This document shows positions 6,807 to 21,270 of a stretch of DNA of 47,087 bases, piece after piece (the stretch's first letter is position 1; each line of letters begins with the position of its first letter). This DNA is from a virus (taxonomy: Duplodnaviria > Heunggongvirae > Uroviricota > Caudoviricetes). Under the pieces are notes generated by a model that was given only the letters and a program-made list of their open reading frames with translations, made no database searches and was not told the DNA's origin. The translations under genes were made by a program, and so were the position numbers. The DNA lies in IMG/VR virus record IMGVR_UViG_2718218131_000001; one strand, given 5' to 3'.

Positions 6807-7477
6807 TGCTCCCCAAATACAAAACCAATTTCAGCTAGTGCCTCGTCCATTTTTTCGATGAACTCCGGCACCATCTCGTCAAAACTCGCTATGTACTTTT
6901 CATCCCGCTCAACCACGACATAATGCAGGCCTTCACGCTTCATTCGCGGGTCATAGTTGGCAAAGTACCAGGCATCTTTTCGCGTCACCCACATGCTGTA
7001 CTGCACCTGGGCCATGTAAGCCGACTTTATGGCCTCGAAACCACCGAGCCGGAACTTCATGAAATCCCGGGAGGTAAACGGGCATTTCAGCTCAAGGCCA
7101 TTGCCGTCACTGCATAAACCATCGGGAGAGCAGGCGGTGCGCATACTTTCGTCGCGATAGATGATCGGGGATTCAGTAACATTCACGCCGGAAGTGAATT
7201 CAAACAGGGTTCTGGCGTCGTTCTCGTACTGTTTTCCCCAGGCCAGCGCCTTAGCATTAACTTCCGGAGCCACACCGGTGCAAACCTCAGCAAGCAGGGT
7301 GTGGAAGTAGGACATTTTCATGTCAGGCCATTTCTTTCCGGATCGGGGTTTTGCTATCACGTTGTGAACTTCTGAAGCTGTAATGACGCCGAGCCGTAAT
7401 TTGTGCCACGCATCATCCCCCTGTTCGACAGCTCTCACGTCGATCCCGGTACGCTGCAGGATAATGTCCGGTGTCAT
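6797..7477 (-). CDS. exo: Lambda exonuclease (Red-alpha)
   Basis: 226-aa [43 protein letters not shown]... matches lambda Exo. Confidence 0.95.
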
Positions 7478-8259
7478 GCAGCCACCTTCTGTTCAGAGGC
7501 TTTCTGTTTCAGGAATCCAAGAGCTTTCACTGCTTCGGCCTGTGTCAGTTCTGACGATGCGCGAATGTCGCGGCGAAATATCTGGGAACAGAGCGGCAAT
7601 AAGTCGTCATCCCATGTTTTGTCCAGGGCAATCAGCAGAGTGTTAATCTCCTGCATGGTTTCATCGTTAACCGGAGTGATGTCGCGTTCCGGCTGACGTT
7701 CTGCAGTGTATGCGGTATTTTCGACAATGCGCTCGGCTTCATCCTTGTCATAGATACCAGCAAATCCGAAGGCCAGACGGGCACACTGAATCATGGCTTT
7801 ATGCCGTAACATCCGTTTGGGATGCGACTGCCACGGTCCGGTGATTTCTCTGCCTTCGCGGGTTTTGAATGGTTCGCGGCGGCATTCATCCATCCATTCG
7901 GTAACGCAGATCGGATGATTACGGTCTTTGCGGTAAATCCGGCATGTACAGGATTCATTGTCCTGCTCAAAGTCCATGCCATCAAACTGCTGGTTTTCAT
8001 TGATGATGCGGGACCAGCCATCAACGCCCACCACCGGAACGATGCCGTTCTGCTTGTCAGGGAAGGCGTAAATTTCTTTCGTCCACGGATTAAGGCCGTA
8101 CTGGTTGGCGACGATCAGCAATGCGATGAACTGCGCATCGCTGGCATCACCTTTAAATGCCGTCTGGCGAAGAGTGGTGATCAGTTCCTGTGGGTCGACA
8201 GAATCCATGCCGACACGTTCAGCCAGCTTCCCTGCCAGCGTTGCGAGTGCTGTACTCAT
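7474..8259 (-). CDS. bet: Single-strand annealing protein Bet (Red-beta)
   Basis: 261-aa [40 protein letters not shown]... matches lambda Bet. Confidence 0.95.
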
Positions 8260-8264
8260 CCGTT

Positions 8265-8681
8265 TTATACCTCTGAATCAATATCAACCTGATGGTGAGC
8301 AATGGTTTCAACCATGTACCGGATGTGTTCTGCCATGCGCTCCTGAAACTCAACATCGTCATCAAACGCACGGGTAATGGCTTTTTTGCTGGCCCCGTGG
8401 CGTTGCAAATGATCGATGCATAGCGATTCAAACAGGTGCTGGGGCAGGCCTTTTTCCATGTCGTCTGCCAGTTCTGCCTCTTTCTCTTCACGGGCGATCT
8501 GCTGGTAGTGACGCGTCCAGCTCTGAGCCTCAAGACGATCCTGAATGTAATAAGCGTTCATGGCTGAACTCCTGAAATAGCTGTGAAAATATCGCCCGCG
8601 AAATGCCGGGCTGATTAGGAAAACAGGGAAGGGGGTTAGTGAATGCTTTTGCTTGATCTCAGTTTCAGTATTAATATCCAT
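8265..8681 (-). CDS. gam: RecBCD inhibitor Gam
   Basis: 138-aa [39 protein letters not shown]... matches lambda Gam. Confidence 0.95.
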
Positions 8682-8779
8682 TTTTTATAAGCGTCGACGG
8701 CCTCACGAAACATCTTTTCATCGCCAATAAAAGTGGCGATAGTGAATTTAGTCTGGATAGCCATAAGTGTTTGATCCAT
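8636..8779 (-). CDS. kil: Host-killing protein Kil
   Basis: C-terminal 47 codons of track ORF 8636..8905 ([47 protein letters not shown]) match lambda Kil. Confidence 0.8.
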
Positions 8780-8912
8780 TTTTTGGGACTCCTGGCTGAT
8801 TAAGTATGTCGATAAGGCGTTTCCATCCGTCACGTAATTTACGGGTGATTCGTTCAAGTAAAGATTCGGAAGGGCAGCCAGCAACAGGCCACCCTGCAAT
8901 GGCATATTGCAT
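8748..8912 (-). CDS. cIII: Protease inhibitor CIII
   Basis: 54-codon ORF below the track cutoff, overlapping kil in another frame; reads [54 protein letters not shown]; coordinates set from the track-supported frame. Confidence 0.55.
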   Translation of the reverse strand: MQYAIAGWPVAGCPSESLLERITRKLRDGWKRLIDILNQPGVPKNGSNTYGYPD

Positions 8913-8984
8913 GGTGTGCTCCTTATTTATACATAACGAAAAACGCCTCGAGTGAAGCGTTATTGGTATGCGGTAACGCAGCGC

Positions 8985-9353
8985 TCAGGCGGCTTTGATA
9001 GTCATATCATCTGAATCAAATATTCCTGATGTATCGATATCGGTAATTCTTATTCCTTCGCTACCATCCATTGGAGGCCATCCTTCCTGACCATTTCCAT
9101 CATTCCAGTCGAACTCACACACAACACCATATGCATTTAAGTCGCTTGAAATTGCTATAAGCAGAGCATGTTGCGCCAGCATGATTAATACAGCATTTAA
9201 TACAGAGCCGTGTTTATTGAGTCGGTATTCAGAGTCTGACCAGAAATTATTAATCTGGTGAAGTTTTTCCTCTGTCATTACGTCATGGTCGATTTCAATT
9301 TCTATTGATGCTTTCCAGTCGTAATCAATGATGTATTTTTTGATGTTTGACAT
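8985..9353 (-). CDS. ea10: Lambda Ea10-like protein
   Basis: 122-aa ORF MSNIKKYIIDYDWKASIEIEIDHDVMTEEKLHQINNFW... matches lambda Ea10; GAGGA RBS. Confidence 0.85.
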   Translation of the reverse strand: MSNIKKYIIDYDWKASIEIEIDHDVMTEEKLHQINNFWSDSEYRLNKHGSVLNAVLIMLAQHALLIAISSDLNAYGVVCEFDWNDGNGQEGWPPMDGSEGIRITDIDTSGIFDSDDMTIKAA

Positions 9354-9371
9354 CTATTCATATCCTCATAG

Positions 9372-9401
9372 ATAAAAAATTGCCCTCACATCGGAGGGCA
9401 A
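9372..9401 (-). terminator. Rho-independent terminator (leftward)
   Basis: Hairpin TTGCCCTC-(6 nt)-GAGGGCAA followed by T6 on the minus strand, just upstream of ea10. Confidence 0.5.
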
Positions 9402-9516
9402 AGAAGATTTCCAATAATCAGAACAAGTCGGCTCCTGTTTAATTATGAGCGACATTTCTCCGTGTATTCACTCGTTGGAATGAATGCACAGTGCAGTGTT
9501 TATTCTGTTGTTTATG

Positions 9517-9544
9517 CCAAAAATAAAGGCCGACTATGCGGCCT
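9517..9544 (-). terminator. Rho-independent terminator (leftward)
   Basis: Hairpin AGGCCG-(6 nt)-CGGCCT followed by TTTATTTTT on the minus strand, just after the 149-aa membrane protein gene. Confidence 0.5.
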
Positions 9545-9548
9545 AAAA

Positions 9549-9998
9549 TTACTTAACCAATGATGCTGCATATTCGATAAGGTAAAGCTTTGGGGCCAGC
9601 CAAATTTTTAACCAAGTCATATTGGTTACTACAGCAATAATAAAACTTACCCACAGAACAAAAACTGCAGCTAATGGTAAGATTAGAAAACTAATCTCAC
9701 CGTTACTTTCCCAAATCATAGTCGGTTTGTATTTAGTCTTCCCCTTATCCCATGACCATCCTTCATCATCGAACTTACCAATTTCAACTTTTTGGCACTG
9801 TTTCTTCATAAACCAGAAAACCAGCGGGATTGTTAAAATGGCTATTAATGTTTTAATCAGACTGTCAACCATATTCCATAGCAGTAACTGATGAACAACA
9901 TCAGGAATCTGTGCCTGGCTAAATGAGACAGCCGCGTCTATTCCATTACTGGCTTTTTGCAATAGTTCTATGAGAATCTTATTTGCCTGTTCTTCCAT
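9549..9998 (-). CDS. Membrane protein in the ral/sieB slot (candidate superinfection-exclusion protein)
   Basis: 149-aa ORF with two hydrophobic segments (LIKTLIAILTIPLVFWFM and ISFLILPLAAVFVLWVSFIIAVV); AT-rich; sits between ea10 and N. Confidence 0.55.
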   Translation of the reverse strand: MEEQANKILIELLQKASNGIDAAVSFSQAQIPDVVHQLLLWNMVDSLIKTLIAILTIPLVFWFMKKQCQKVEIGKFDDEGWSWDKGKTKYKPTMIWESNGEISFLILPLAAVFVLWVSFIIAVVTNMTWLKIWLAPKLYLIEYAASLVK

Positions 9999-10056
9999 AT
10001 ATCACCTCAAATAAGTGGTTTGCTGCCTAATTTCATTTTCTGGCGAACAGTGCAGG

Positions 10057-10329
10057 TTACCTCGCTGTCAGTTGTTTTGATTTCCGGTAGCCTGCCGCGT
10101 AAAGAGCTACGTTCGGAAGACAAGTTGAACCTTCATATTTTCTGGTCAACGTTGTCAGAGTTATAACTTCTGCTCTCATTGCTGGTTTGCGCTTGCATTG
10201 CAAGACCACTCGTGAAGGGGTTGGCCTGTGTAGCTTGTCGGAGCTAATCGCCTCCTGACTTTGCAGGTTTGCGCGACGAGCTCTACGGCGAGAAGCTGCG
10301 GTGCCTTTAAATTCTGTTTTTCTGGACAT
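10057..10329 (-). CDS. N: N-type transcription antiterminator (P22 gp24-like)
   Basis: Track ORF 10057..10401; start at internal ATG 10329 with GGGAGG RBS; arginine-rich N-terminus GTAASRRRARRANLQ; C-terminus LPNVALYAAGYRKSKQLTAR resembles P22 gp24. Confidence 0.75.
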   Translation of the reverse strand: MSRKTEFKGTAASRRRARRANLQSQEAISSDKLHRPTPSRVVLQCKRKPAMRAEVITLTTLTRKYEGSTCLPNVALYAAGYRKSKQLTAR

Positions 10330-10427
10330 AGATTCCTCCCGAATAAACTTTGGCGATGCAATCTCGAAGCTCCTCCTGAGACGGTTACTTCGGCATTGCA
10401 TCCCACAGCTTATGTGGTTGGGTGATC

Positions 10428-10473
10428 TGGCTTTTCAGCCACGTAGTCGAGTGTTCGACGTTGTTTAAAGAGC
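10428..10473 (-). promoter_or_regulatory. nutL-like site (boxA GGCTCTTTAA, boxB GGCTGAAAAGCC)
   Basis: On the leftward transcript between pL and N: boxA-like element then a short hairpin with GAAAA-type loop; the boxB loop matches the nutR candidate. Confidence 0.4.
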
Positions 10474-10519
10474 CTGCCAGTCTGCTCCGTTTGGCTTACA
10501 GCGTCCTGCTGATGAGTTG

Positions 10520-10566
10520 ACTTTATCGAAATGATAAACTGATGGCAATAGCAAAATGATAAATTG
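10520..10566 (-). promoter_or_regulatory. pL/oL: leftward early promoter with repressor operators
   Basis: Minus strand TTGCCA-17 nt-TAAAGT; two copies of the AAATGATAAA operator motif that also recurs in oR. Confidence 0.5.
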
Positions 10567-10744
10567 TTTGGGTTTTCAAATATCCTGTTGATTATTATGG
10601 TTTTTTATTTGATTGCGGGAATTTATCAGAAGGAATGAAGAGACTTGAGGGGGATCAGAATTTCGTGGTTTAGAAAGTTGTATCTATCAATTTTTCAATA
10701 AATACAATTGGTTAAGGTGTTATTAGGTGTGGGGATCGTGAGGC

Positions 10745-10770
10745 AAAGAAAACCCGGCGCTGAGGCCGGG
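10745..10770 (-). terminator. tImm-like rho-independent terminator
   Basis: Hairpin CCCGGC-(6 nt)-GCCGGG followed by TTTTCTTT on the minus strand; surrounding ~100 bp recalled as the lambda sequence just downstream of rexB. Confidence 0.6.
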
Positions 10771-10791
10771 TTCTGTCATCTAACTTAAGTA

Positions 10792-10920
10792 TCAAGCCGC
10801 TTTTTGTGAATGATTGATGTGAGCTTCAAAGTCGCGGCGTAGATTTTGAACGCGCTCTACACATCCGCGCATTTCAGCCAAAAGCTTACTAACGGCAGTA
10901 TAGTCAAACGCTTTAGTCAT
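10792..10920 (-). CDS. Small hypothetical protein (42 aa), second gene of the rex-slot cassette
   Basis: ATG at 10920 preceded by GAGGGG then an A-run; MTKAFDYTAVSKLLAEMRGCVERVQNLRRDFEAHINHSQKAA; stop 3 bp before the tImm hairpin region; below the track length cutoff. Confidence 0.45.
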   Translation of the reverse strand: MTKAFDYTAVSKLLAEMRGCVERVQNLRRDFEAHINHSQKAA

Positions 10921-10935
10921 TTTTTTTCCCCTCGT

Positions 10936-11298
10936 TTAAATGTAAGGCTCAACATCAAGGGCTGCTATTGCTGCGCACAATGCGTCAGGATCGTCAGCAT
11001 CGATGGCTTGAGCCAGGTCATTAGCCAGTATAAGTAACTTATCGATGACAGCGATTTCGCTGGTCTTATCTACACGAAAGTATGGGAGCAGAGCATTACA
11101 TACGTCTCTGAATGTCCGTAATTCTGCGACAACGTTCGAAAAGGTAGGATCTTTCTTACGAAGATCCACCAATGGCGCTACTTTAGCTGTTTTCAGCATT
11201 GCACTAATCTCGCCAATCATTGTTCCATGCAGACGATTAAATTCATCAACAGCTCGGTCATGCAAGCTCTTGTTGATTGGCAATACGTTTTGGGTCAC
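10936..11298 (-). CDS. Hypothetical protein (120 aa), first gene of the rex-slot cassette
   Basis: GTG start with consensus AAGGAG 8 nt upstream; predicted soluble, no recognised motifs; AT-rich. Confidence 0.6.
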   Translation of the reverse strand: MTQNVLPINKSLHDRAVDEFNRLHGTMIGEISAMLKTAKVAPLVDLRKKDPTFSNVVAELRTFRDVCNALLPYFRVDKTSEIAVIDKLLILANDLAQAIDADDPDALCAAIAALDVEPYI

Positions 11299-11566
11299 TA
11301 ACTATACTCCTTATATAGGTGTTCGCCAACAGATTTTCAATATGACTTGGGCGATTTCTGAACAATAAGCACGATTTAGCAATGATTAATTGATGTTAAG
11401 CACAAATATCTCTACATCGTGCATTTTTAACTATTTATACACATAAAATCTAATAAATGGATATAAACCTTATGATGATTTTTCTCAATCGAATTGAATA
11501 ATGATCTCTATCACATCACCCAAACGTCTCTTCAGGCCACTGGTTACCAGCTATGTGACGATGAAG

Positions 11567-12271
11567 TCACGAACTTTTCAGCCACTCCCTTGCCTCGATG
11601 TCATCCAGATGGCGAGATTGCTTCAGAATACCAGCCACATACTCCACCTTTGCTACTTGATGATAAGGCAACGTTATTGGCCTGTGGTCCTGGTTGATGC
11701 TTGTAAATTGGTATTCTCCATCTCTGTCATAGCCAAGAACTTTGATCATGTTGTGTCCTTCAACAGTTCTGACAAACACCTCATCCCCCGGGAATACTTT
11801 GGTGTTAGGCTCAATGAGTACATATTCTCCTGATTTTATTCTGGGCCACATGCTGTCTCCTTTCACACGAAGACCAAAGGCATCTGGATCATCGCTATAA
11901 ATATTGAGCCACCCATCGCGCTCTTCGGTCATCTCGATGGCACCATCAACACCAAGAATTGCCTCACCAACCACGCGCACTAACCCTTTTCTTACCTGAC
12001 CGACAAAAGTTAAAGAATCTGAGCATGATGCAATTGGTGTTACATCATGTACCAAATCAAGCCACCCATTAGGTAACCCAAGTGCGGCTTCGAATTTTCT
12101 TGCTAGTTTATCCCCTATGTTTCGAGTGCTTTTTTCACCGGAGACTTGCGTGAGTTGAGAAGGGCTAACTCCAAGCTTATCGGCAAAGCTTGCATTAGTG
12201 TTACCCGCGATTTTTTTATGCTCATCTAGCAAAAACGCCAGATTCGATTTGCGAATATCTTTGTTTTCCAT
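11567..12271 (-). CDS. cI: CI-type prophage repressor (HTH + S24 LexA-like peptidase domain)
   Basis: 234-aa ORF; N-terminal HTH (FADKLGVSPSQLTQV), C-terminal autocleavage domain with GDSM serine and downstream lysine; divergent from lambda CI. Confidence 0.85.
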   Translation of the reverse strand: MENKDIRKSNLAFLLDEHKKIAGNTNASFADKLGVSPSQLTQVSGEKSTRNIGDKLARKFEAALGLPNGWLDLVHDVTPIASCSDSLTFVGQVRKGLVRVVGEAILGVDGAIEMTEERDGWLNIYSDDPDAFGLRVKGDSMWPRIKSGEYVLIEPNTKVFPGDEVFVRTVEGHNMIKVLGYDRDGEYQFTSINQDHRPITLPYHQVAKVEYVAGILKQSRHLDDIEAREWLKSS

Positions 12272-17456: not shown

Positions 17457-17641
17457 ACGCCACAATTCAAACGATACCAGAGCTTCTTATCCATACACGA
17501 GGCAATCAGACCGAAGTGGCAAGGATGCTTTCCTGCGCAAGAGGAACAGTGCTCAAGTACAACCGAGACAGCAAAGGCGAGCGTCATGTAATAGTTAACG
17601 GCGTCCTGATGGTCAAACAGGGCAAGAGGGGAAGACGATGA
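17453..17641 (+). CDS. ninH: NinH-like protein
   Basis: 62-aa ORF ...GNQTEVARMLSCARGTVLKY... parallels lambda NinH. Confidence 0.6.
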   Translation: MNATIQTIPELLIHTRGNQTEVARMLSCARGTVLKYNRDSKGERHVIVNGVLMVKQGKRGRR

Positions 17642-18261
17642 GACTCGAAAGCGTAGCTAAATTTCATTCGCCAAAAAGCCCGATGATGAGCGACTCACCA
17701 CGGGCCACGGCTTCTGACTCTCTTTCCGGTACTGATGTGATGGCTGCTATGGGGATGGCACAATCACAGGCCGGATTCGGTATGGCTGCATTCTGCGGTA
17801 AGCATGAACTCAGCCAGAACGACAAACAAAAGGCTATCAACTATCTGATGCAATTTGCACACAAGGTATCGGGGAAATACCGTGGTGTGGCAAAGCTCGA
17901 AGGAAATACTAAGGCAAAGGTACTGCAAGTGCTCGCAACATTCGCTTATGCGGATTATTGCCGTAGTGCCGCTACGCCGGGCGCAAGATGCAGAGATTGC
18001 CACGGTACAGGCCGTGCGGTTGATATAGCCAAAACAGAGCAGTGGGGGATAGTTGCTGAGAAAGAGTGCGGAAGATGTAAAGGCGTCGGTTATTCAAGAA
18101 TGCCAGCAAGCGCCGCATATCGCGCTGTGACGATGCTAATCCCAAACCTTACCCAACCCACCTGGTCACGCACTGTTAAGCCGCTGTATGACGCTCTGGT
18201 TGTGCAATGCCACAAGGAAGAGTCAATCGCAGACAACATTTTGAATGCGATCACACGTTAG
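17638..18261 (+). CDS. Q: Late-gene antiterminator Q
   Basis: 207-aa ORF MRLESVAKFHSPKSPMMSDSPRATASDSLSGTDVMAAMG... matches lambda Q including zinc-finger cysteines. Confidence 0.95.
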   Translation: MRLESVAKFHSPKSPMMSDSPRATASDSLSGTDVMAAMGMAQSQAGFGMAAFCGKHELSQNDKQKAINYLMQFAHKVSGKYRGVAKLEGNTKAKVLQVLATFAYADYCRSAATPGARCRDCHGTGRAVDIAKTEQWGIVAEKECGRCKGVGYSRMPASAAYRAVTMLIPNLTQPTWSRTVKPLYDALVVQCHKEESIADNILNAITR

Positions 18262-18303: not shown

Positions 18304-18332
18304 TTGACTTTTTGAATAACTTTGGGGAAACT
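18304..18332 (+). promoter_or_regulatory. pR' late promoter
   Basis: TTGACT-17 nt-GAAACT directly downstream of Q; aligns with the recalled lambda pR' (TTGACT...TAAATT); similarity to lambda ends just after it. Confidence 0.5.
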
Positions 18333-18540
18333 TGACACCAATAATGGGCGTTTTTTACATGTCATTGATGAGTCTCAATAACCTGCCGCCGAGTAGTTTT
18401 TATGCTCTGAATTGTATTTGTGTAGTAAACATGCTGACTGCAATGTAATAGAGTTTTTTTAGCCTGTAACCTCTTGACGGCATTGAATTGCTTTTGTTAT
18501 GAGTTGTAAGCCAATGTTATCATCTTGTATTGGGGTGGTT

Positions 18541-19011
18541 ATGAAGGATGGTGCGCTGCTCAGGAGTTCTTCACTTTTTATTGCCTACATGGGATGCCTT
18601 GGATGGGGGAGTGCTTATTTCTATGGATGGGGTACTTCTTTTTACTACGGCTTCCCATGGTGGATTGTAGGTGCAGGTGTTGATGATGTTGCCAGAAGTT
18701 TATTTTTTGCAGTTATCGTCATTGCTATATTTCTTATCGGTTGGGGTATTGGTGTTGTATTCTTTTTCGCAGTGAAAAGAAAACATTCTATGCAAGAGCT
18801 AAATGTATTTCGCCTTTATTTTGCTGTGGAATTATTGTTTGTGCCGGCAATTATTGAGTTTTCTATATTGAGACAGAAGATTCAGGTACCTCTTTTGCTA
18901 CTGTCAGCAGCGATTGCGCTGGCGGTTACAATTTCGATAAGATCTTATGGGCGATTTTTATCGGTATCATGCTTCTATGATAAGCCATTTATAAAAAAAA
19001 CATTTTTTTGA
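18541..19011 (+). CDS. Multi-pass membrane protein (W/G/F-rich), first ORF of the pR'-proximal cassette
   Basis: Track ORF 18499..19011; start placed at ATG 18541 with GGGGTGG upstream; about 4 predicted TM helices; very AT-rich. Confidence 0.5.
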   Translation: MKDGALLRSSSLFIAYMGCLGWGSAYFYGWGTSFYYGFPWWIVGAGVDDVARSLFFAVIVIAIFLIGWGIGVVFFFAVKRKHSMQELNVFRLYFAVELLFVPAIIEFSILRQKIQVPLLLLSAAIALAVTISIRSYGRFLSVSCFYDKPFIKKTFF

Positions 19012-19015
19012 GATT

Positions 19016-19210
19016 GTGATGATTGCTTTTGTGGCATATTTCTGGCTTTTTTCATTTCTGACAGGATATTACAAACCACAGTTTAAGAAAGAATATGAAA
19101 TGATTAATTATAATGATGGTTGGTATTATGTTCTTGCTCGTTATGATAATTGTCTGGTTTTGTCTACTTCTTTCAATGCAGGTAGTAAAAGGTTTGTCAT
19201 TTATCAATAA
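19016..19210 (+). CDS. Small hydrophobic protein, possibly the displaced C-terminus of the upstream membrane protein
   Basis: 64-aa ORF starting 5 nt after the upstream stop, +1 frame; one hydrophobic helix; joins the upstream ORF if the A8 tract at 18993..19000 loses one base. Confidence 0.4.
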   Translation: MMIAFVAYFWLFSFLTGYYKPQFKKEYEMINYNDGWYYVLARYDNCLVLSTSFNAGSKRFVIYQ

Positions 19211-19688
19211 GCACAAGATAAGAATCTTCAGGTTGATATTGTAAGGACCAGAATTTAATTGGCTGCATAAATAATATTTTAAGTTGCAAGTTGGCTATTC
19301 GTAGGAATAGAACCTTAGGCATGCTGAATGCGTTTTCTGAACATTGTTTTATAAACTGTGTCTGCTTGCTGTTGTGATCCTGCTTTTAGTGATGGTGATG
19401 ATGGATTTCACCAGCAGGATAATGTTGGTACTGACTGATGGCGCTCTGGTCTGCGGCATTGTGGTATTGCTGTGGCCGATGATGAAAGAACAGAATGAAT
19501 AATTCTTGACTTTTTTGTTTACTGTTTATTAAAAAATCAACCGCATGGTGAATCCTCCTTGGAGGGGCTAAATGATCGAGTTTTAAGGGCACGTAGCGAG
19601 TTCTGTTTGATCATTGCAGAACTTAGCGGGAGGCGCCATGCGTACATCACTAATGTTATTTCCTTCTATCATTTTCCTTGTGAGTTCT

Positions 19689-19715
19689 GGCTGCGCATGG
19701 CGCGGCCTTTTTTTT
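19689..19715 (+). terminator. Strong rho-independent terminator in the late leader (tR'-like position)
   Basis: 8-bp GC-rich stem GGCTGCGC / GCGCGGCC with one G-U pair, followed by T8. Confidence 0.6.
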
Positions 19716-20123
19716 ATGACCTGCCACTGGCAGATGGTCATCCTGTGATTTGATTCCGGTTCCGGCTTTTTAACTCTGTTCCTGTACACGGGAGAAATTC
19801 TATGTCGATTAATCGTTATGATATTGGTTACAAGAAGTACCACGTATTGTGTTGAGATAGAAAGCATGGTGCCAGAGGTAAATGCAGCAGCATAATAAAA
19901 AAGAGCCAGCGCAGAAGAGAACGGGTAAAAGAGTCTGCGCTGGCGTGGGGATATTCCCCGTGGAGAAATGATATGTAACACACATCGGGAACCTTTCTAT
20001 ATAAACATTATCATTATTGTCAATCATAACAGTCAGGTATTATGACGTTTATGCATCAGGGCCATCAGGAATTAACTGGTGGCTTTTTATTGTTGTCAGC
20101 TTCCGGATAACGGGAGACGGGGT

Positions 20124-20339
20124 ATGTACCAGATGGAAAAAATAACAACAGGTGTGTCATACACCACGTCAGCGGTGGGGACGGGATACTGGCTACTGCA
20201 GTTGCTGGACAAAGTCTCTCCGTCCCAGTGGGTGGCAATAGGTGTGCTGGGAAGTCTGCTGTTTGGCCTGCTGACGTATCTGACAAATCTTTATTTCAAG
20301 ATTAAAGAAGATAAGCGTAAGGCTGCGAGAGGTGAATAA
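20124..20339 (+). CDS. S: Class II holin (phage 21 S21-type pinholin)
   Basis: 71 codons from MYQMEK (dual Met start); ...[40 protein letters not shown] matches S21. Confidence 0.85.
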
Positions 20340-20836
20340 TGTCGCCGTCATTACGCAAGGCTGTTGCAGCTGCTATTGGTGGTGGGGCTGTTGCCATAGC
20401 GTCTGTGCTCATCACTGGTCCAGGTGGTAACGATGGTCTGGAAGGTGTCAGCTACATACCATACAAAGATATCGTTGGCGTATGGACTGTATGTCACGGA
20501 CACACCGGAAAAGACATCATGCCCGGTAAAACGTATACCGAAGCAGAATGCAAAGCCCTCCTGAATAAAGACCTTGCCACGGTCGCCAGACAAATTAACC
20601 CGTACATCAACGTCGATATACCGGAAACAACGCGCGGCGCTCTTTACTCGTTCGTTTACAACGTGGGCGCTGGCAATTTCAGAACATCGACGCTTCTTCG
20701 CAAAATAAACCAGGGCGATATCAAAGGCGCATGTGATCAGCTACGGCGCTGGACATACGCTGGCGGTAAGCAATGGAAAGGGCTGATGACTCGCCGCGAG
20801 ATTGAGCGTGAAGTCTGTTTGTGGGGGCAACAATGA
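20339..20836 (+). CDS. R: SAR endolysin (lysozyme with N-terminal signal-anchor-release helix)
   Basis: 165-aa ORF; Gly/Ala-rich N-terminal hydrophobic helix [20 protein letters not shown] then lysozyme catalytic region; phage-21-type. Confidence 0.85.
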
Positions 20837-21270
20837 GCAGGGTAACCGTTATTATCTCCGCTCTGGTTATCTGCATTATCGCCTGCCTGTCATGGGCTGT
20901 TAATCATTACCGTGATAACGCCATCGCCTACAAAGAGCAGCGCGATAAAGCCACATCCATCATCGCTGATATGCAGAAGCGGCAACGTGATGTAGCAGAA
21001 CTTGACGCCAGATACACAAAGGAGCTTGCTGATGCTAATGCGACTATCGAAAGTCTCCGTGCTGATGTTTCTGCTGGGCGTAAGCGCCTGCAAGTCTCCG
21101 CCACCTGTGCAAAGTCAACGACCGGAGCCAGCAGCATGGGCGATGGAGAAAGCCCAGGACTTACAGCAGATGCTGAACTCAATTATTACCGTCTCCGAGG
21201 TGGAATCGACAAGATAACCGCGCAGGTTAACTACCTGCAGGAATACATCAGGACGCAGTGCTTAAAATAA
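20833..21270 (+). CDS. Rz: i-spanin Rz
   Basis: Track ORF 20821..21270; ATG at 20833 overlaps the endolysin stop; N-terminal TM helix then coiled coil. Confidence 0.8.
21002..21217 (+). CDS. Rz1: o-spanin Rz1 (lipoprotein) embedded in Rz in the +1 frame
   Basis: ORF nested in Rz; signal peptide with lipobox-like VSAC then Pro-rich segment [12 protein letters not shown]; exact start uncertain. Confidence 0.6.

Follow-up and report, generated by a model that had tools for sequence, protein, structure and literature searches.

A late-operon leader in a lambda-like prophage probably carries two convergent, Hfq-dependent small RNA genes, PasD1/EcOnc13 and EcOnc32

Convergent pairs of small RNA (sRNA) genes were described 3' of the late promoter PR' in Sp3 and further prophages by Tree et al. 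in 2014 (PMC4104026). Two of these sRNAs come from Sp3 of enterohemorrhagic Escherichia coli (EHEC) Sakai: EcOnc13 (Sakai 901332-901382, plus strand; ~187 nt by northern blotting; Table S2 of that study) and EcOnc32 (Sakai 901574-901662, minus strand; ~112 nt by northern blotting, recovered in 5 data sets). From enteropathogenic E. coli (EPEC) E2348/69, Pearl Mizrahi et al. reported PasD1 in 2021 (PMC8550237, Table S6), an sRNA of 173 nt (NC_011601.1, 1060260-1060432, plus strand) that is homologous to EcOnc13, was validated by northern blotting, and depends on Hfq for its stability. In a 2026 preprint, Zhu, Shabalina and Storz placed PasD upstream of a sialate esterase gene, related it to the STnc100 family, and reported Esr41 cmscan hits near it; the synteny they gave for PasD was a Q antiterminator and LpxR within 10 kb, with holin and lysozyme genes adjacent. 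Here we compare these systems with positions 19211-20123 of the 47,087-nucleotide IMG/VR virus record IMGVR_UViG_2718218131_000001 (Caudoviricetes), the whole of which we call the window. The window carries a lambda-like prophage, and the interval is its late-operon leader, lying between the Q-dependent PR' and the holin gene. We put the probability at about 90% that this interval is a "moron" site with two convergent, independently terminated, Hfq-dependent sRNA genes, PasD1/EcOnc13 and EcOnc32. The main elements are already explained in the literature, where the convergent layout has been on record since 2014. The features on which this reading depends are as follows.

19543-19715, plus strand: PasD1 sRNA (EcOnc13 of EHEC Sakai Sp3), 173 nt, 100% identical to NC_011601.1 1060260-1060432
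19506-19535, plus strand: putative sigma-70 promoter of pasD1, read from sequence (TTGACT 19506-19511, 18-nt spacer, TAAAAA 19530-19535)
~19989-19897, minus strand: EcOnc32, an Esr41-like sRNA, ~93 nt as judged from its promoter, mapping to a published Hfq-crosslinked segment
19996-20023, minus strand: probable EcOnc32 promoter (TTGACA 20023 to 20018, 16-nt spacer, TATAGA 20001 to 19996)

PasD1 of EPEC E2348/69 is identical to the window over 173 of 173 nt, and the sequence of the northern probe is present too. The Hfq-crosslink peak of EcOnc13 maps to 19649-19699 on the plus strand. The RNA is laid out as a structured 5' domain (19543-19641), a U-rich single-stranded region, and a terminator (19689-19715) that reads GGCTGCGC-ATG-GCGCGGCC followed by T8 and has an 8-bp GC-rich stem (-16 kcal/mol; z-score of -3.1 against shuffled sequences). 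Just 5' of the terminator stem lies the seed UGUGAG (19679-19684). The partners of PasD1 found by ligating and sequencing interacting RNAs (RIL-seq) carry the complementary CUCACA; they include aceE, uspA, yhdW, gltI, cesF, perB, coaE, spr, and ilvC (PMC8550237). GC-rich stem-loops followed by a U-run, as in intrinsic terminators, occur at plus-strand 19689-19715, at minus-strand 19944 to 19897, and in weaker form at plus-strand 20058-20086. The published 5' end of PasD1 falls 7 nt downstream of TTGACT-18-TAAAAA, which may serve as the pasD1 promoter, and a TTAAAA motif at an equal distance from GCATGG is kept in STnc100-family relatives.

The surroundings of PasD1 in E2348/69 are also those of the window. 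Prophage PP4 of that strain has an equal gene order, with Q and genes for a membrane protein, a DUF3927 protein, and holin as neighbors, so that the likeness to PasD1/PasD2 and EcOnc13 covers the RNA, its seed, its terminator, and the PP4 neighborhood. Of the synteny given by Zhu et al., Q, holin, and endolysin genes are present; unlike in that neighborhood, no LpxR was found by tblastn over the whole 47-kb window.

The 5' domain relates PasD1 to STnc100 (RF02076), a family that includes EcOnc27 and sRNA103 and is found, for example, just downstream of stx2B. The Rfam STnc100 model matches 19513-19718 over its full length (model positions 1-206) with 37.7 bits (E = 1.3e-6), where the gathering score is 47. 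Like STnc100, PasD1 has the 5' domain GCAUGGUGAAUCC...GGGAGGC...CCAUGC, in which a closing helix surrounds internal hairpins, and both lie at the 3' end of a moron cassette and end in an intrinsic terminator. In the minimum-energy fold of PasD1 this helix pairs GCAUGGUG...CCUCC with GGGAGG...CCAUGC, corresponding to the GCAUGGUG/CACCAUGC helix of STnc100, and each of the 44 distinct 5' domains of the family that IMG/VR yielded can form it. Across the same 44 domains, the GGAUUCAG/CUGAAUUC internal hairpin shows compensatory changes, GC to AU and AU to UA to GC. Unlike STnc100, PasD1 lacks the CCGGG/CCCGG hairpin of the consensus and has another seed and another terminator. Judged by sequence, PasD1 is a relative of STnc100 and, by the curated cut-off, not a member.

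Many IMG/VR prophages carry two copies of the STnc100/PasD family, 230 to 470 nt apart (L016 at 3151 and 3619, L028 at 841 and 1309, L084 at 1393 and 1660, and L013). The family looks modular, with a near-invariant 5' domain joined to several unrelated seed/terminator cassettes. In one such cassette (L020, L043, and L120), the terminator is of PasD type and the seed is another.

The second sRNA gene lies on the opposite strand. The published Sakai segment of EcOnc32 has an exact 89-nt match at 19891-19979. A first, sequence-only reading of this stretch had pointed to an 11-bp inverted repeat with a 19-nt loop; the repeat is there (19905-19915 and 19934-19944; -21.2 kcal/mol, z-score of -6.8), with 18 nt between its arms. 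That reading missed the U-tract, which is on the minus strand (TCTTTTTT, 19904-19897) and makes the repeat a minus-strand terminator. EcOnc32 as a whole folds with -37.4 kcal/mol (z-score of -6.1) into a 5' hairpin, single-stranded AUCAUUUCUCCAC, the GGGGAAUAUCCCC hairpin, and the terminator (19944 to 19905), followed by UCUUUUUU. Its seed, ACAUAUCAUUUCUCCAC, is single stranded and runs from 19976 to 19960.

This architecture is that of Esr41/EcOnc14 (RF02676): a 5' hairpin, the single strand (A)UUUCUCCA, a GGGG-AU-CCC hairpin, and a GCC(A/G)GC...GCUGGC terminator with a U-tract. When the two RNAs are aligned, the parts stand in equal order and the hairpins differ at several stem positions. 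The Rfam Esr41 model matches 19895-19984 on the minus strand over its full length (model positions 1-74) with 32.3 bits (E = 3.5e-4), against a gathering score of 102 and 108.6 bits for the true Esr41 at its own locus; Esr41 was located in Sakai by cmscan, as the old Sakai coordinates did not fit NC_002695.2. The two sRNAs share a promoter layout, TTGACAA ... TATA, and both pair with iron-related mRNA leaders. EcOnc32 differs from Esr41 in a terminator loop that is 18 nt longer, in its location in a lambdoid late region rather than in island SpLE1 of EHEC, and in its published partners, which are entC, probably the rpoS leader region, and dnaK for EcOnc32 and chuA, cirA, and bfr for Esr41. A comparison of the flanks of the Esr41 and EcOnc32 loci found no similarity.

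Three EcOnc32 sequence variants from IMG/VR keep the promoter as TTGACA-16-TATAGA/TATAAA, and although the sequences of the terminator stems and loops vary among them, self-complementarity is retained. A minus-strand CTGACT-18-GATAAT from the promoter scan was set aside, since only TTGACA-16-TATAGA is kept in all three variants. EcOnc32 also resembles PasA/PasC (EcOnc51/52), which likewise lie on the minus strand between esterase and holin genes, are convergent with the esterase gene, and have a GCCAGC...GCTGGC terminator. There is, however, no significant similarity to them outside the terminator, and the seeds differ; the idea that EcOnc32 is a PasA/PasC allele was rejected when BLAST against the window gave only an 11- to 15-nt terminator match.

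Two interactome data sets connect EcOnc32 with entC. In EHEC, a hybrid read obtained by RNase E crosslinking, ligation, and sequencing of hybrids (RNase E-CLASH; Waters et al.) joins the ECs0632 leader to ACATATCATTTCTCCACGGGGAAT. The latter is EcOnc32 sequence, and ECs_0632 is entC. The EPEC RIL-seq table pairs the entC 5' untranslated region (5' UTR) with "E2348C_1013" in 263 chimeras (P = 4e-165); the positions given for "E2348C_1013" correspond to window 19896-19955, that is, to EcOnc32, which is always the second partner in its chimeras. Its further partners are the nlpD-E2348C_3010 intergenic region (537 chimeras), probably the rpoS leader, the dnaK 5' UTR, and one island intergenic region. 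The same RNA falls by 2.9 log2 units in an EPEC hfq deletion strain (adjusted P = 1e-23), and the RIL-seq columns, as read here, give ~808,000 other chimeric fragments for EcOnc32 versus ~24,000 for PasD1.

The predicted local duplex of EcOnc32 with the leader of entC, the first enterobactin synthesis gene, has -26.4 kcal/mol, versus -10.8 +/- 2.8 kcal/mol for shuffled sequences, none of 1000 being as good, and the predicted pairing through the UUUCUCCAC seed of EcOnc32 covers the entC Shine-Dalgarno sequence and AUG. An unrestricted duplexfold of the two RNAs was over-extended and weakly significant, and the local core duplex replaced it. We infer that EcOnc32 may repress entC.

A Fur-box-like site at 20000-20018 matches GATAATGATAATCATTATC at 15 of 19 positions, compared with 12 of 19 for esr41, and overlaps the spacer and -10 element of the EcOnc32 promoter. 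It has the best Fur-consensus score in the 47-kb window, in which the (NATWAT)x3 pattern, allowing one mismatch, occurs once where 0.03 occurrences are expected. The site is only partly kept in EcOnc32 variant V2. These matches suggest that Fur could control EcOnc32. We offer as a tentative proposal, on the doubtful side in its full form, that EcOnc32 is an iron-responsive, Fur-repressed Esr41 paralogue of lambdoid late regions that would shut off enterobactin synthesis by pairing with the entC Shine-Dalgarno sequence and start codon, and that it is among the most abundant Hfq-bound RNAs in EPEC and EHEC. EcOnc32 has been listed before but never named or studied, hidden as it is under the spurious coding sequence ECs_0817/E2348C_1013, and no literature text naming it was found. 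The Esr41-like seed, the Fur-box-like promoter site, and the spurious coding sequence that hides the RNA are possibly new points.

We propose that in the lysogen both sRNAs would be made from their own promoters and stop at their own terminators, and that the upstream moron transcript may, through its 3' end, be a further source of PasD1. In published RIL-seq data, PasD1 pairs on Hfq with mRNAs bearing CUCACA, the complement of its seed UGUGAG, and the UUUCUCCAC seed of EcOnc32 could mask the entC ribosome-binding site and start codon. Upon induction, Q-modified RNA polymerase would pass all plus-strand terminators into S-R-Rz.

Several points weigh against this interpretation. The experimental support is carried over from identical sequences in E2348/69 and Sakai rather than taken from the strain of the window. 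Both Rfam scores are below gathering (37.7 versus 47 and 32.3 versus 102); the Rfam scan at gathering thresholds was without sRNA matches, and the relatives of PasD1 and EcOnc32 surfaced only in E-value mode. The 5' ends are approximate, that of PasD1 coming from RNA-seq coverage and that of EcOnc32 from its promoter (~93 nt versus ~112 nt by northern blotting). Ribosome profiling (RIBOseq) of EDL933 lists STnc100_1 (902843, plus strand) at the corresponding position with a ribosome-coverage value of 2.16, so some ribosome association is possible; values as high are listed there for the classic sRNAs RyhB, RprA, and CyaR. Finally, the mapping of the Tree et al. coordinates presumes agreement with NC_002695.2, from which there is an offset of ~140 nt at the Esr41 locus. 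Here, by contrast, the Sakai segments so mapped are exact matches to the window, and the CLASH read independently confirms EcOnc32.

The setting of the two genes is a classical moron insertion site, between PR' and the lysis genes, and is described by the following features.

18304-18332, plus strand: lambda-type late promoter PR', by alignment with lambda (-35 TTGACT 18304-18309, -10 GAAACT 18327-18332)
18514-19258, plus strand: membrane-protein gene, 247 aa (phage 434 gp68, WP_001302581), annotated in RefSeq (E2865, E2348/69) and in the phage 434 record
19344-19502, plus strand: intact gene for a 52-aa DUF3927/TciB-like small membrane protein (Pfam PF13064), annotated in RefSeq and phage 434
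19802-19895, plus strand: scar of a NanS-p/SASA sialate O-acetylesterase gene, by comparison with phage 434
20058-20086, plus strand: terminator-like hairpin with TTTTTATTGTT after it, 38 nt 5' of the holin start codon, a terminator in the phage 434 annotation

More than 550 complete E. coli genomes, O157, O26, O103, and O111 strains among them, contain all 913 bp of the interval with 100% identity. Three annotated open reading frames (ORFs) and one gene scar touch the interval, and protein-coding sequence takes up ~207 of its 913 nt. The sequence-only reading was thus right to call this a mostly non-coding late leader before the holin gene, but when it saw no convincing gene here it overlooked the intact DUF3927 gene, which Pfam recognizes with E = 3.4e-14 and 53 bits, the cut-off being 25, over positions 7-49 of the 53-position profile. 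In phage 434 and in E2865 the membrane-protein gene extends to 19258; here it is broken, which makes the left boundary at 19211 an accident of this copy, and the interval opens with the final 48 nt of the gene (19211-19258). The gene has a frameshift from an extra A in the run at 18993-19000 (A8 versus A7) and a second lesion, the nonsense change C to A at 19209, that turns TCA into TAA (19208-19210). Only 1 of 690 genomes, that of strain Z1323CEC0005 from chicken, matches the window exactly across the broken stretch.

That reading had also suspected a decayed gene remnant. There is one, and it is not the 36-codon ORF that had been proposed but the esterase scar, the true remnant of the interval. 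What is left is 25 nt of the 5' end (19802-19826; ATG and 8 codons) joined to 69 nt of the 3' end (19827-19895; ~23 terminal codons, ending ...VEIESMVPEVNAAA*); across the junction 19826|19827, ~1754 bp are gone relative to phage 434 (L001, 3116-4869), and the window holds no intact ORF of ~616 aa for this esterase. Intact esterases of 618 to 647 aa, ending ...VEIESLMLEINAAAS, stand just before EcOnc32-like genes in two IMG/VR loci, L229 and L244. The order without the deletion, as in L244, is Q, membrane protein, PasD, esterase, EcOnc32-like gene, holin, and PP2 has this order with PasA in the EcOnc32 position. The deleted esterase gene normally separates the two sRNA genes. Locus L244 (IMG/VR 2534681... 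contig, ~7460-12200) has a lambda-type Q, an intact membrane-protein gene, a PasD variant, an intact 618-aa esterase gene, an EcOnc32 variant, and a holin gene; it is apparently the undeleted form of the module and could be used as an ancestral reference for the deletion in the window.

The Q antiterminator gene, of lambda type, encodes 207 aa (17638-18261, plus strand; Pfam Antiterm, E = 1.2e-57), and PR' lies directly 3' of it. In alignment with lambda, the -35 element and spacer length of PR' are equal and the initial transcribed region is similar; by analogy, transcription would start at ~18339. The -10 element is GAAACT here and TAAATT in lambda, and the initial transcribed region has CAATAAT here where lambda has the pause-inducing AACGAT. 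This PR' may be a variant Q-utilization site for an otherwise lambda-like Q. On the other side of the interval, the P21-type class II holin gene (20124-20339; Pfam) is followed by ORFs at 20339-20836 and 20821-21270, annotated in E2865 as lysozyme RrrD and endopeptidase RzpD. The sole Rfam match in the window above its gathering score is the lambda cIII thermoregulator (8867-8925, minus strand; 88.5 bits), which confirms a lambda-type early-left region.

Because the interval lies between PR' and the holin gene, late transcripts must read through its terminators, and this position gives weight to another explanation. The hairpins might be mainly cis-acting attenuators of the late operon that, in the absence of Q, halt transcription short of the lysis genes, with the 36-codon ORF as a dead lipoprotein gene; we consider this improbable, although it is the best of the alternatives. 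The region precedes S and lies 1.2 to 1.8 kb past a lambda-type PR', and a scan for plus-strand terminators between the two found only that of PasD1 and the hairpin at 20058-20086. A tR'-like terminator is present in phage 434 (L001, 1669-1694; -13.3 kcal/mol, z-score of -3.9), whereas the corresponding 18382-18405 of the window is degenerate (-5.1 kcal/mol, z-score of -0.2), which makes the PasD1 terminator the first one found after PR'; the lambda-Q-type module of the window may be without a terminator close to PR'. Homology to phage 434 starts at ~18380, at the joint with the lambda-type Q/PR' module. The second hairpin, 38 nt before S, has -16.2 kcal/mol (z-score of -3.0), and its stretch recurs with ~93 to 94% identity ahead of P21-type holin genes in well over 1,000 E. 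coli genomes. The lambda tR'/6S RNA and, in Stx phages, the short PR' transcript StxS offer a parallel, with intrinsic terminators between PR' and the lysis genes that are overridden by Q-modified polymerase and a short RNA in the lysogen. PasD1 differs from 6S RNA and StxS in that ~1.2 kb and two protein genes separate it from PR' and in that it has a promoter-like site of its own.

What speaks for sRNA genes instead is that the plus-strand terminator closes a discrete RNA that is abundant, is bound by Hfq, and has a promoter-like site and trans targets, and that in PP2, 434, and 2B8 the same sRNA module also precedes an esterase gene, at a long distance from the lysis genes. The 11-bp repeat terminates the opposite strand, and neither the ORF nor the palindrome is conserved, the latter as a structure. 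Of the regulatory structures that the sequence-only reading had assigned to read-through control, then, the terminators do lie on the path of late transcription, whereas the repeat belongs to EcOnc32 and does not control read-through of late transcripts. It is plausible that in the lysogen, as a by-product, the PasD1 and 20058-20086 terminators also bar polymerase lacking the Q modification from the lysis genes, and that Q overrides them. Such a barrier would be compatible with the read-through idea as a secondary effect; it leaves the minus-strand terminator and the palindrome unexplained.

The ORF, the palindrome, and an annotated ORF on the other strand have the following positions.

19638-19748, plus strand: 36-codon ORF, judged not to be a gene, inside a 44-aa ORF with a TTG start (19614-19748)
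19716-19741, plus strand: imperfect palindrome ATGACC-TGCCACTGGCA-GAT-GGTCAT in the esterase leader
19583-19981, minus strand: "hypothetical protein" WP_012578864.1 (ECs_0817, E2348C_1013), 132 aa, from RefSeq, judged spurious

The sequence-only reading had placed the ORF, its GGGAGG, the terminator at 19689-19715, the palindrome, and the 11-bp repeat where we find them. Structure prediction, a check that it had itself named, bore out the terminator and the repeat but not the palindrome, whose z-score of -1.55 is indistinguishable from that of shuffled sequences. Substitutions in relatives disrupt the pairing of the palindrome without compensation, and we assign it no function; as a sigma-54 site it was discarded on inspection, as the spacing does not fit.

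That PasD1 is a dual-function RNA, also encoding a small hydrophobic peptide (36 aa, MRTSLMLFPSIIFLVSSGC..., or a 14-aa version in PasD2), strikes us as very unlikely. A GGGAGG at 19628-19633, 4 nt 5' of the ATG, the hydrophobic N terminus, the EDL933 ribosome coverage of 2.16, and the "putative membrane protein" call made here by the annotators of phage 434 could be read in its favor. In the predicted ensemble, however, the probability of being unpaired is 0.05 for the GGGAGG and 0.00 for the AUG, and the two make up the 3' strand of the conserved closing helix. A 1-nt insertion or deletion in PasD2 and in the more distant PasD variant of L244 cuts the ORF to 14 codons, ending at a UGA inside the seed, so the two commonest variants differ by a frameshift, and the more distant family members that were found have unrelated sequence in this segment. 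The stop codon (19746-19748) is 31 nt past the 3' end of the PasD1 transcript, which makes the terminated RNA a non-stop message. The peptide had been taken for lipoprotein-like, but V-S-S-G-C is a poor lipobox, with S at -3 where [LVI][ASTVI][GAS]C calls for L, V, or I. We judge that the 36-codon ORF, which overlaps the 3' half of PasD1, is not a gene.

The 132-aa minus-strand ORF, with hairpins inside it by accident, can hardly be a real protein gene despite its annotation in RefSeq and Sakai and its abundant transcript in EPEC, as it is antisense to PasD1 and contains EcOnc32, the reads fall on the short 3'-terminal segment that is EcOnc32 and appear, sRNA-like, as second chimera partner only, the strong terminator 19944-19897 lies inside it, it crosses the esterase deletion junction and did not exist until that deletion, the undeleted locus is annotated with a pseudogene only ("frameshifted; internal stop"), and a Pfam search found no family above cut-off.

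The value of these observations is chiefly one of annotation: a stretch that could pass for junk or for a dead lipoprotein gene, and that recurs in hundreds of pathogenic E. coli prophages, is, on our interpretation, two Hfq-dependent sRNA genes. Genome pipelines still lay the spurious 132-aa "hypothetical protein" over both, and owing to the annotation of WP_012578864.1, published RIL-seq tables file an abundant Hfq-bound RNA as a coding sequence. The biological interest is modest, because convergent sRNAs that rewire host regulation from late-region moron sites are already in the literature. If it is true, the pairing of EcOnc32 with entC, with possible control by Fur, would mean that in EHEC and EPEC the iron and siderophore circuit includes a regulator carried by a phage.

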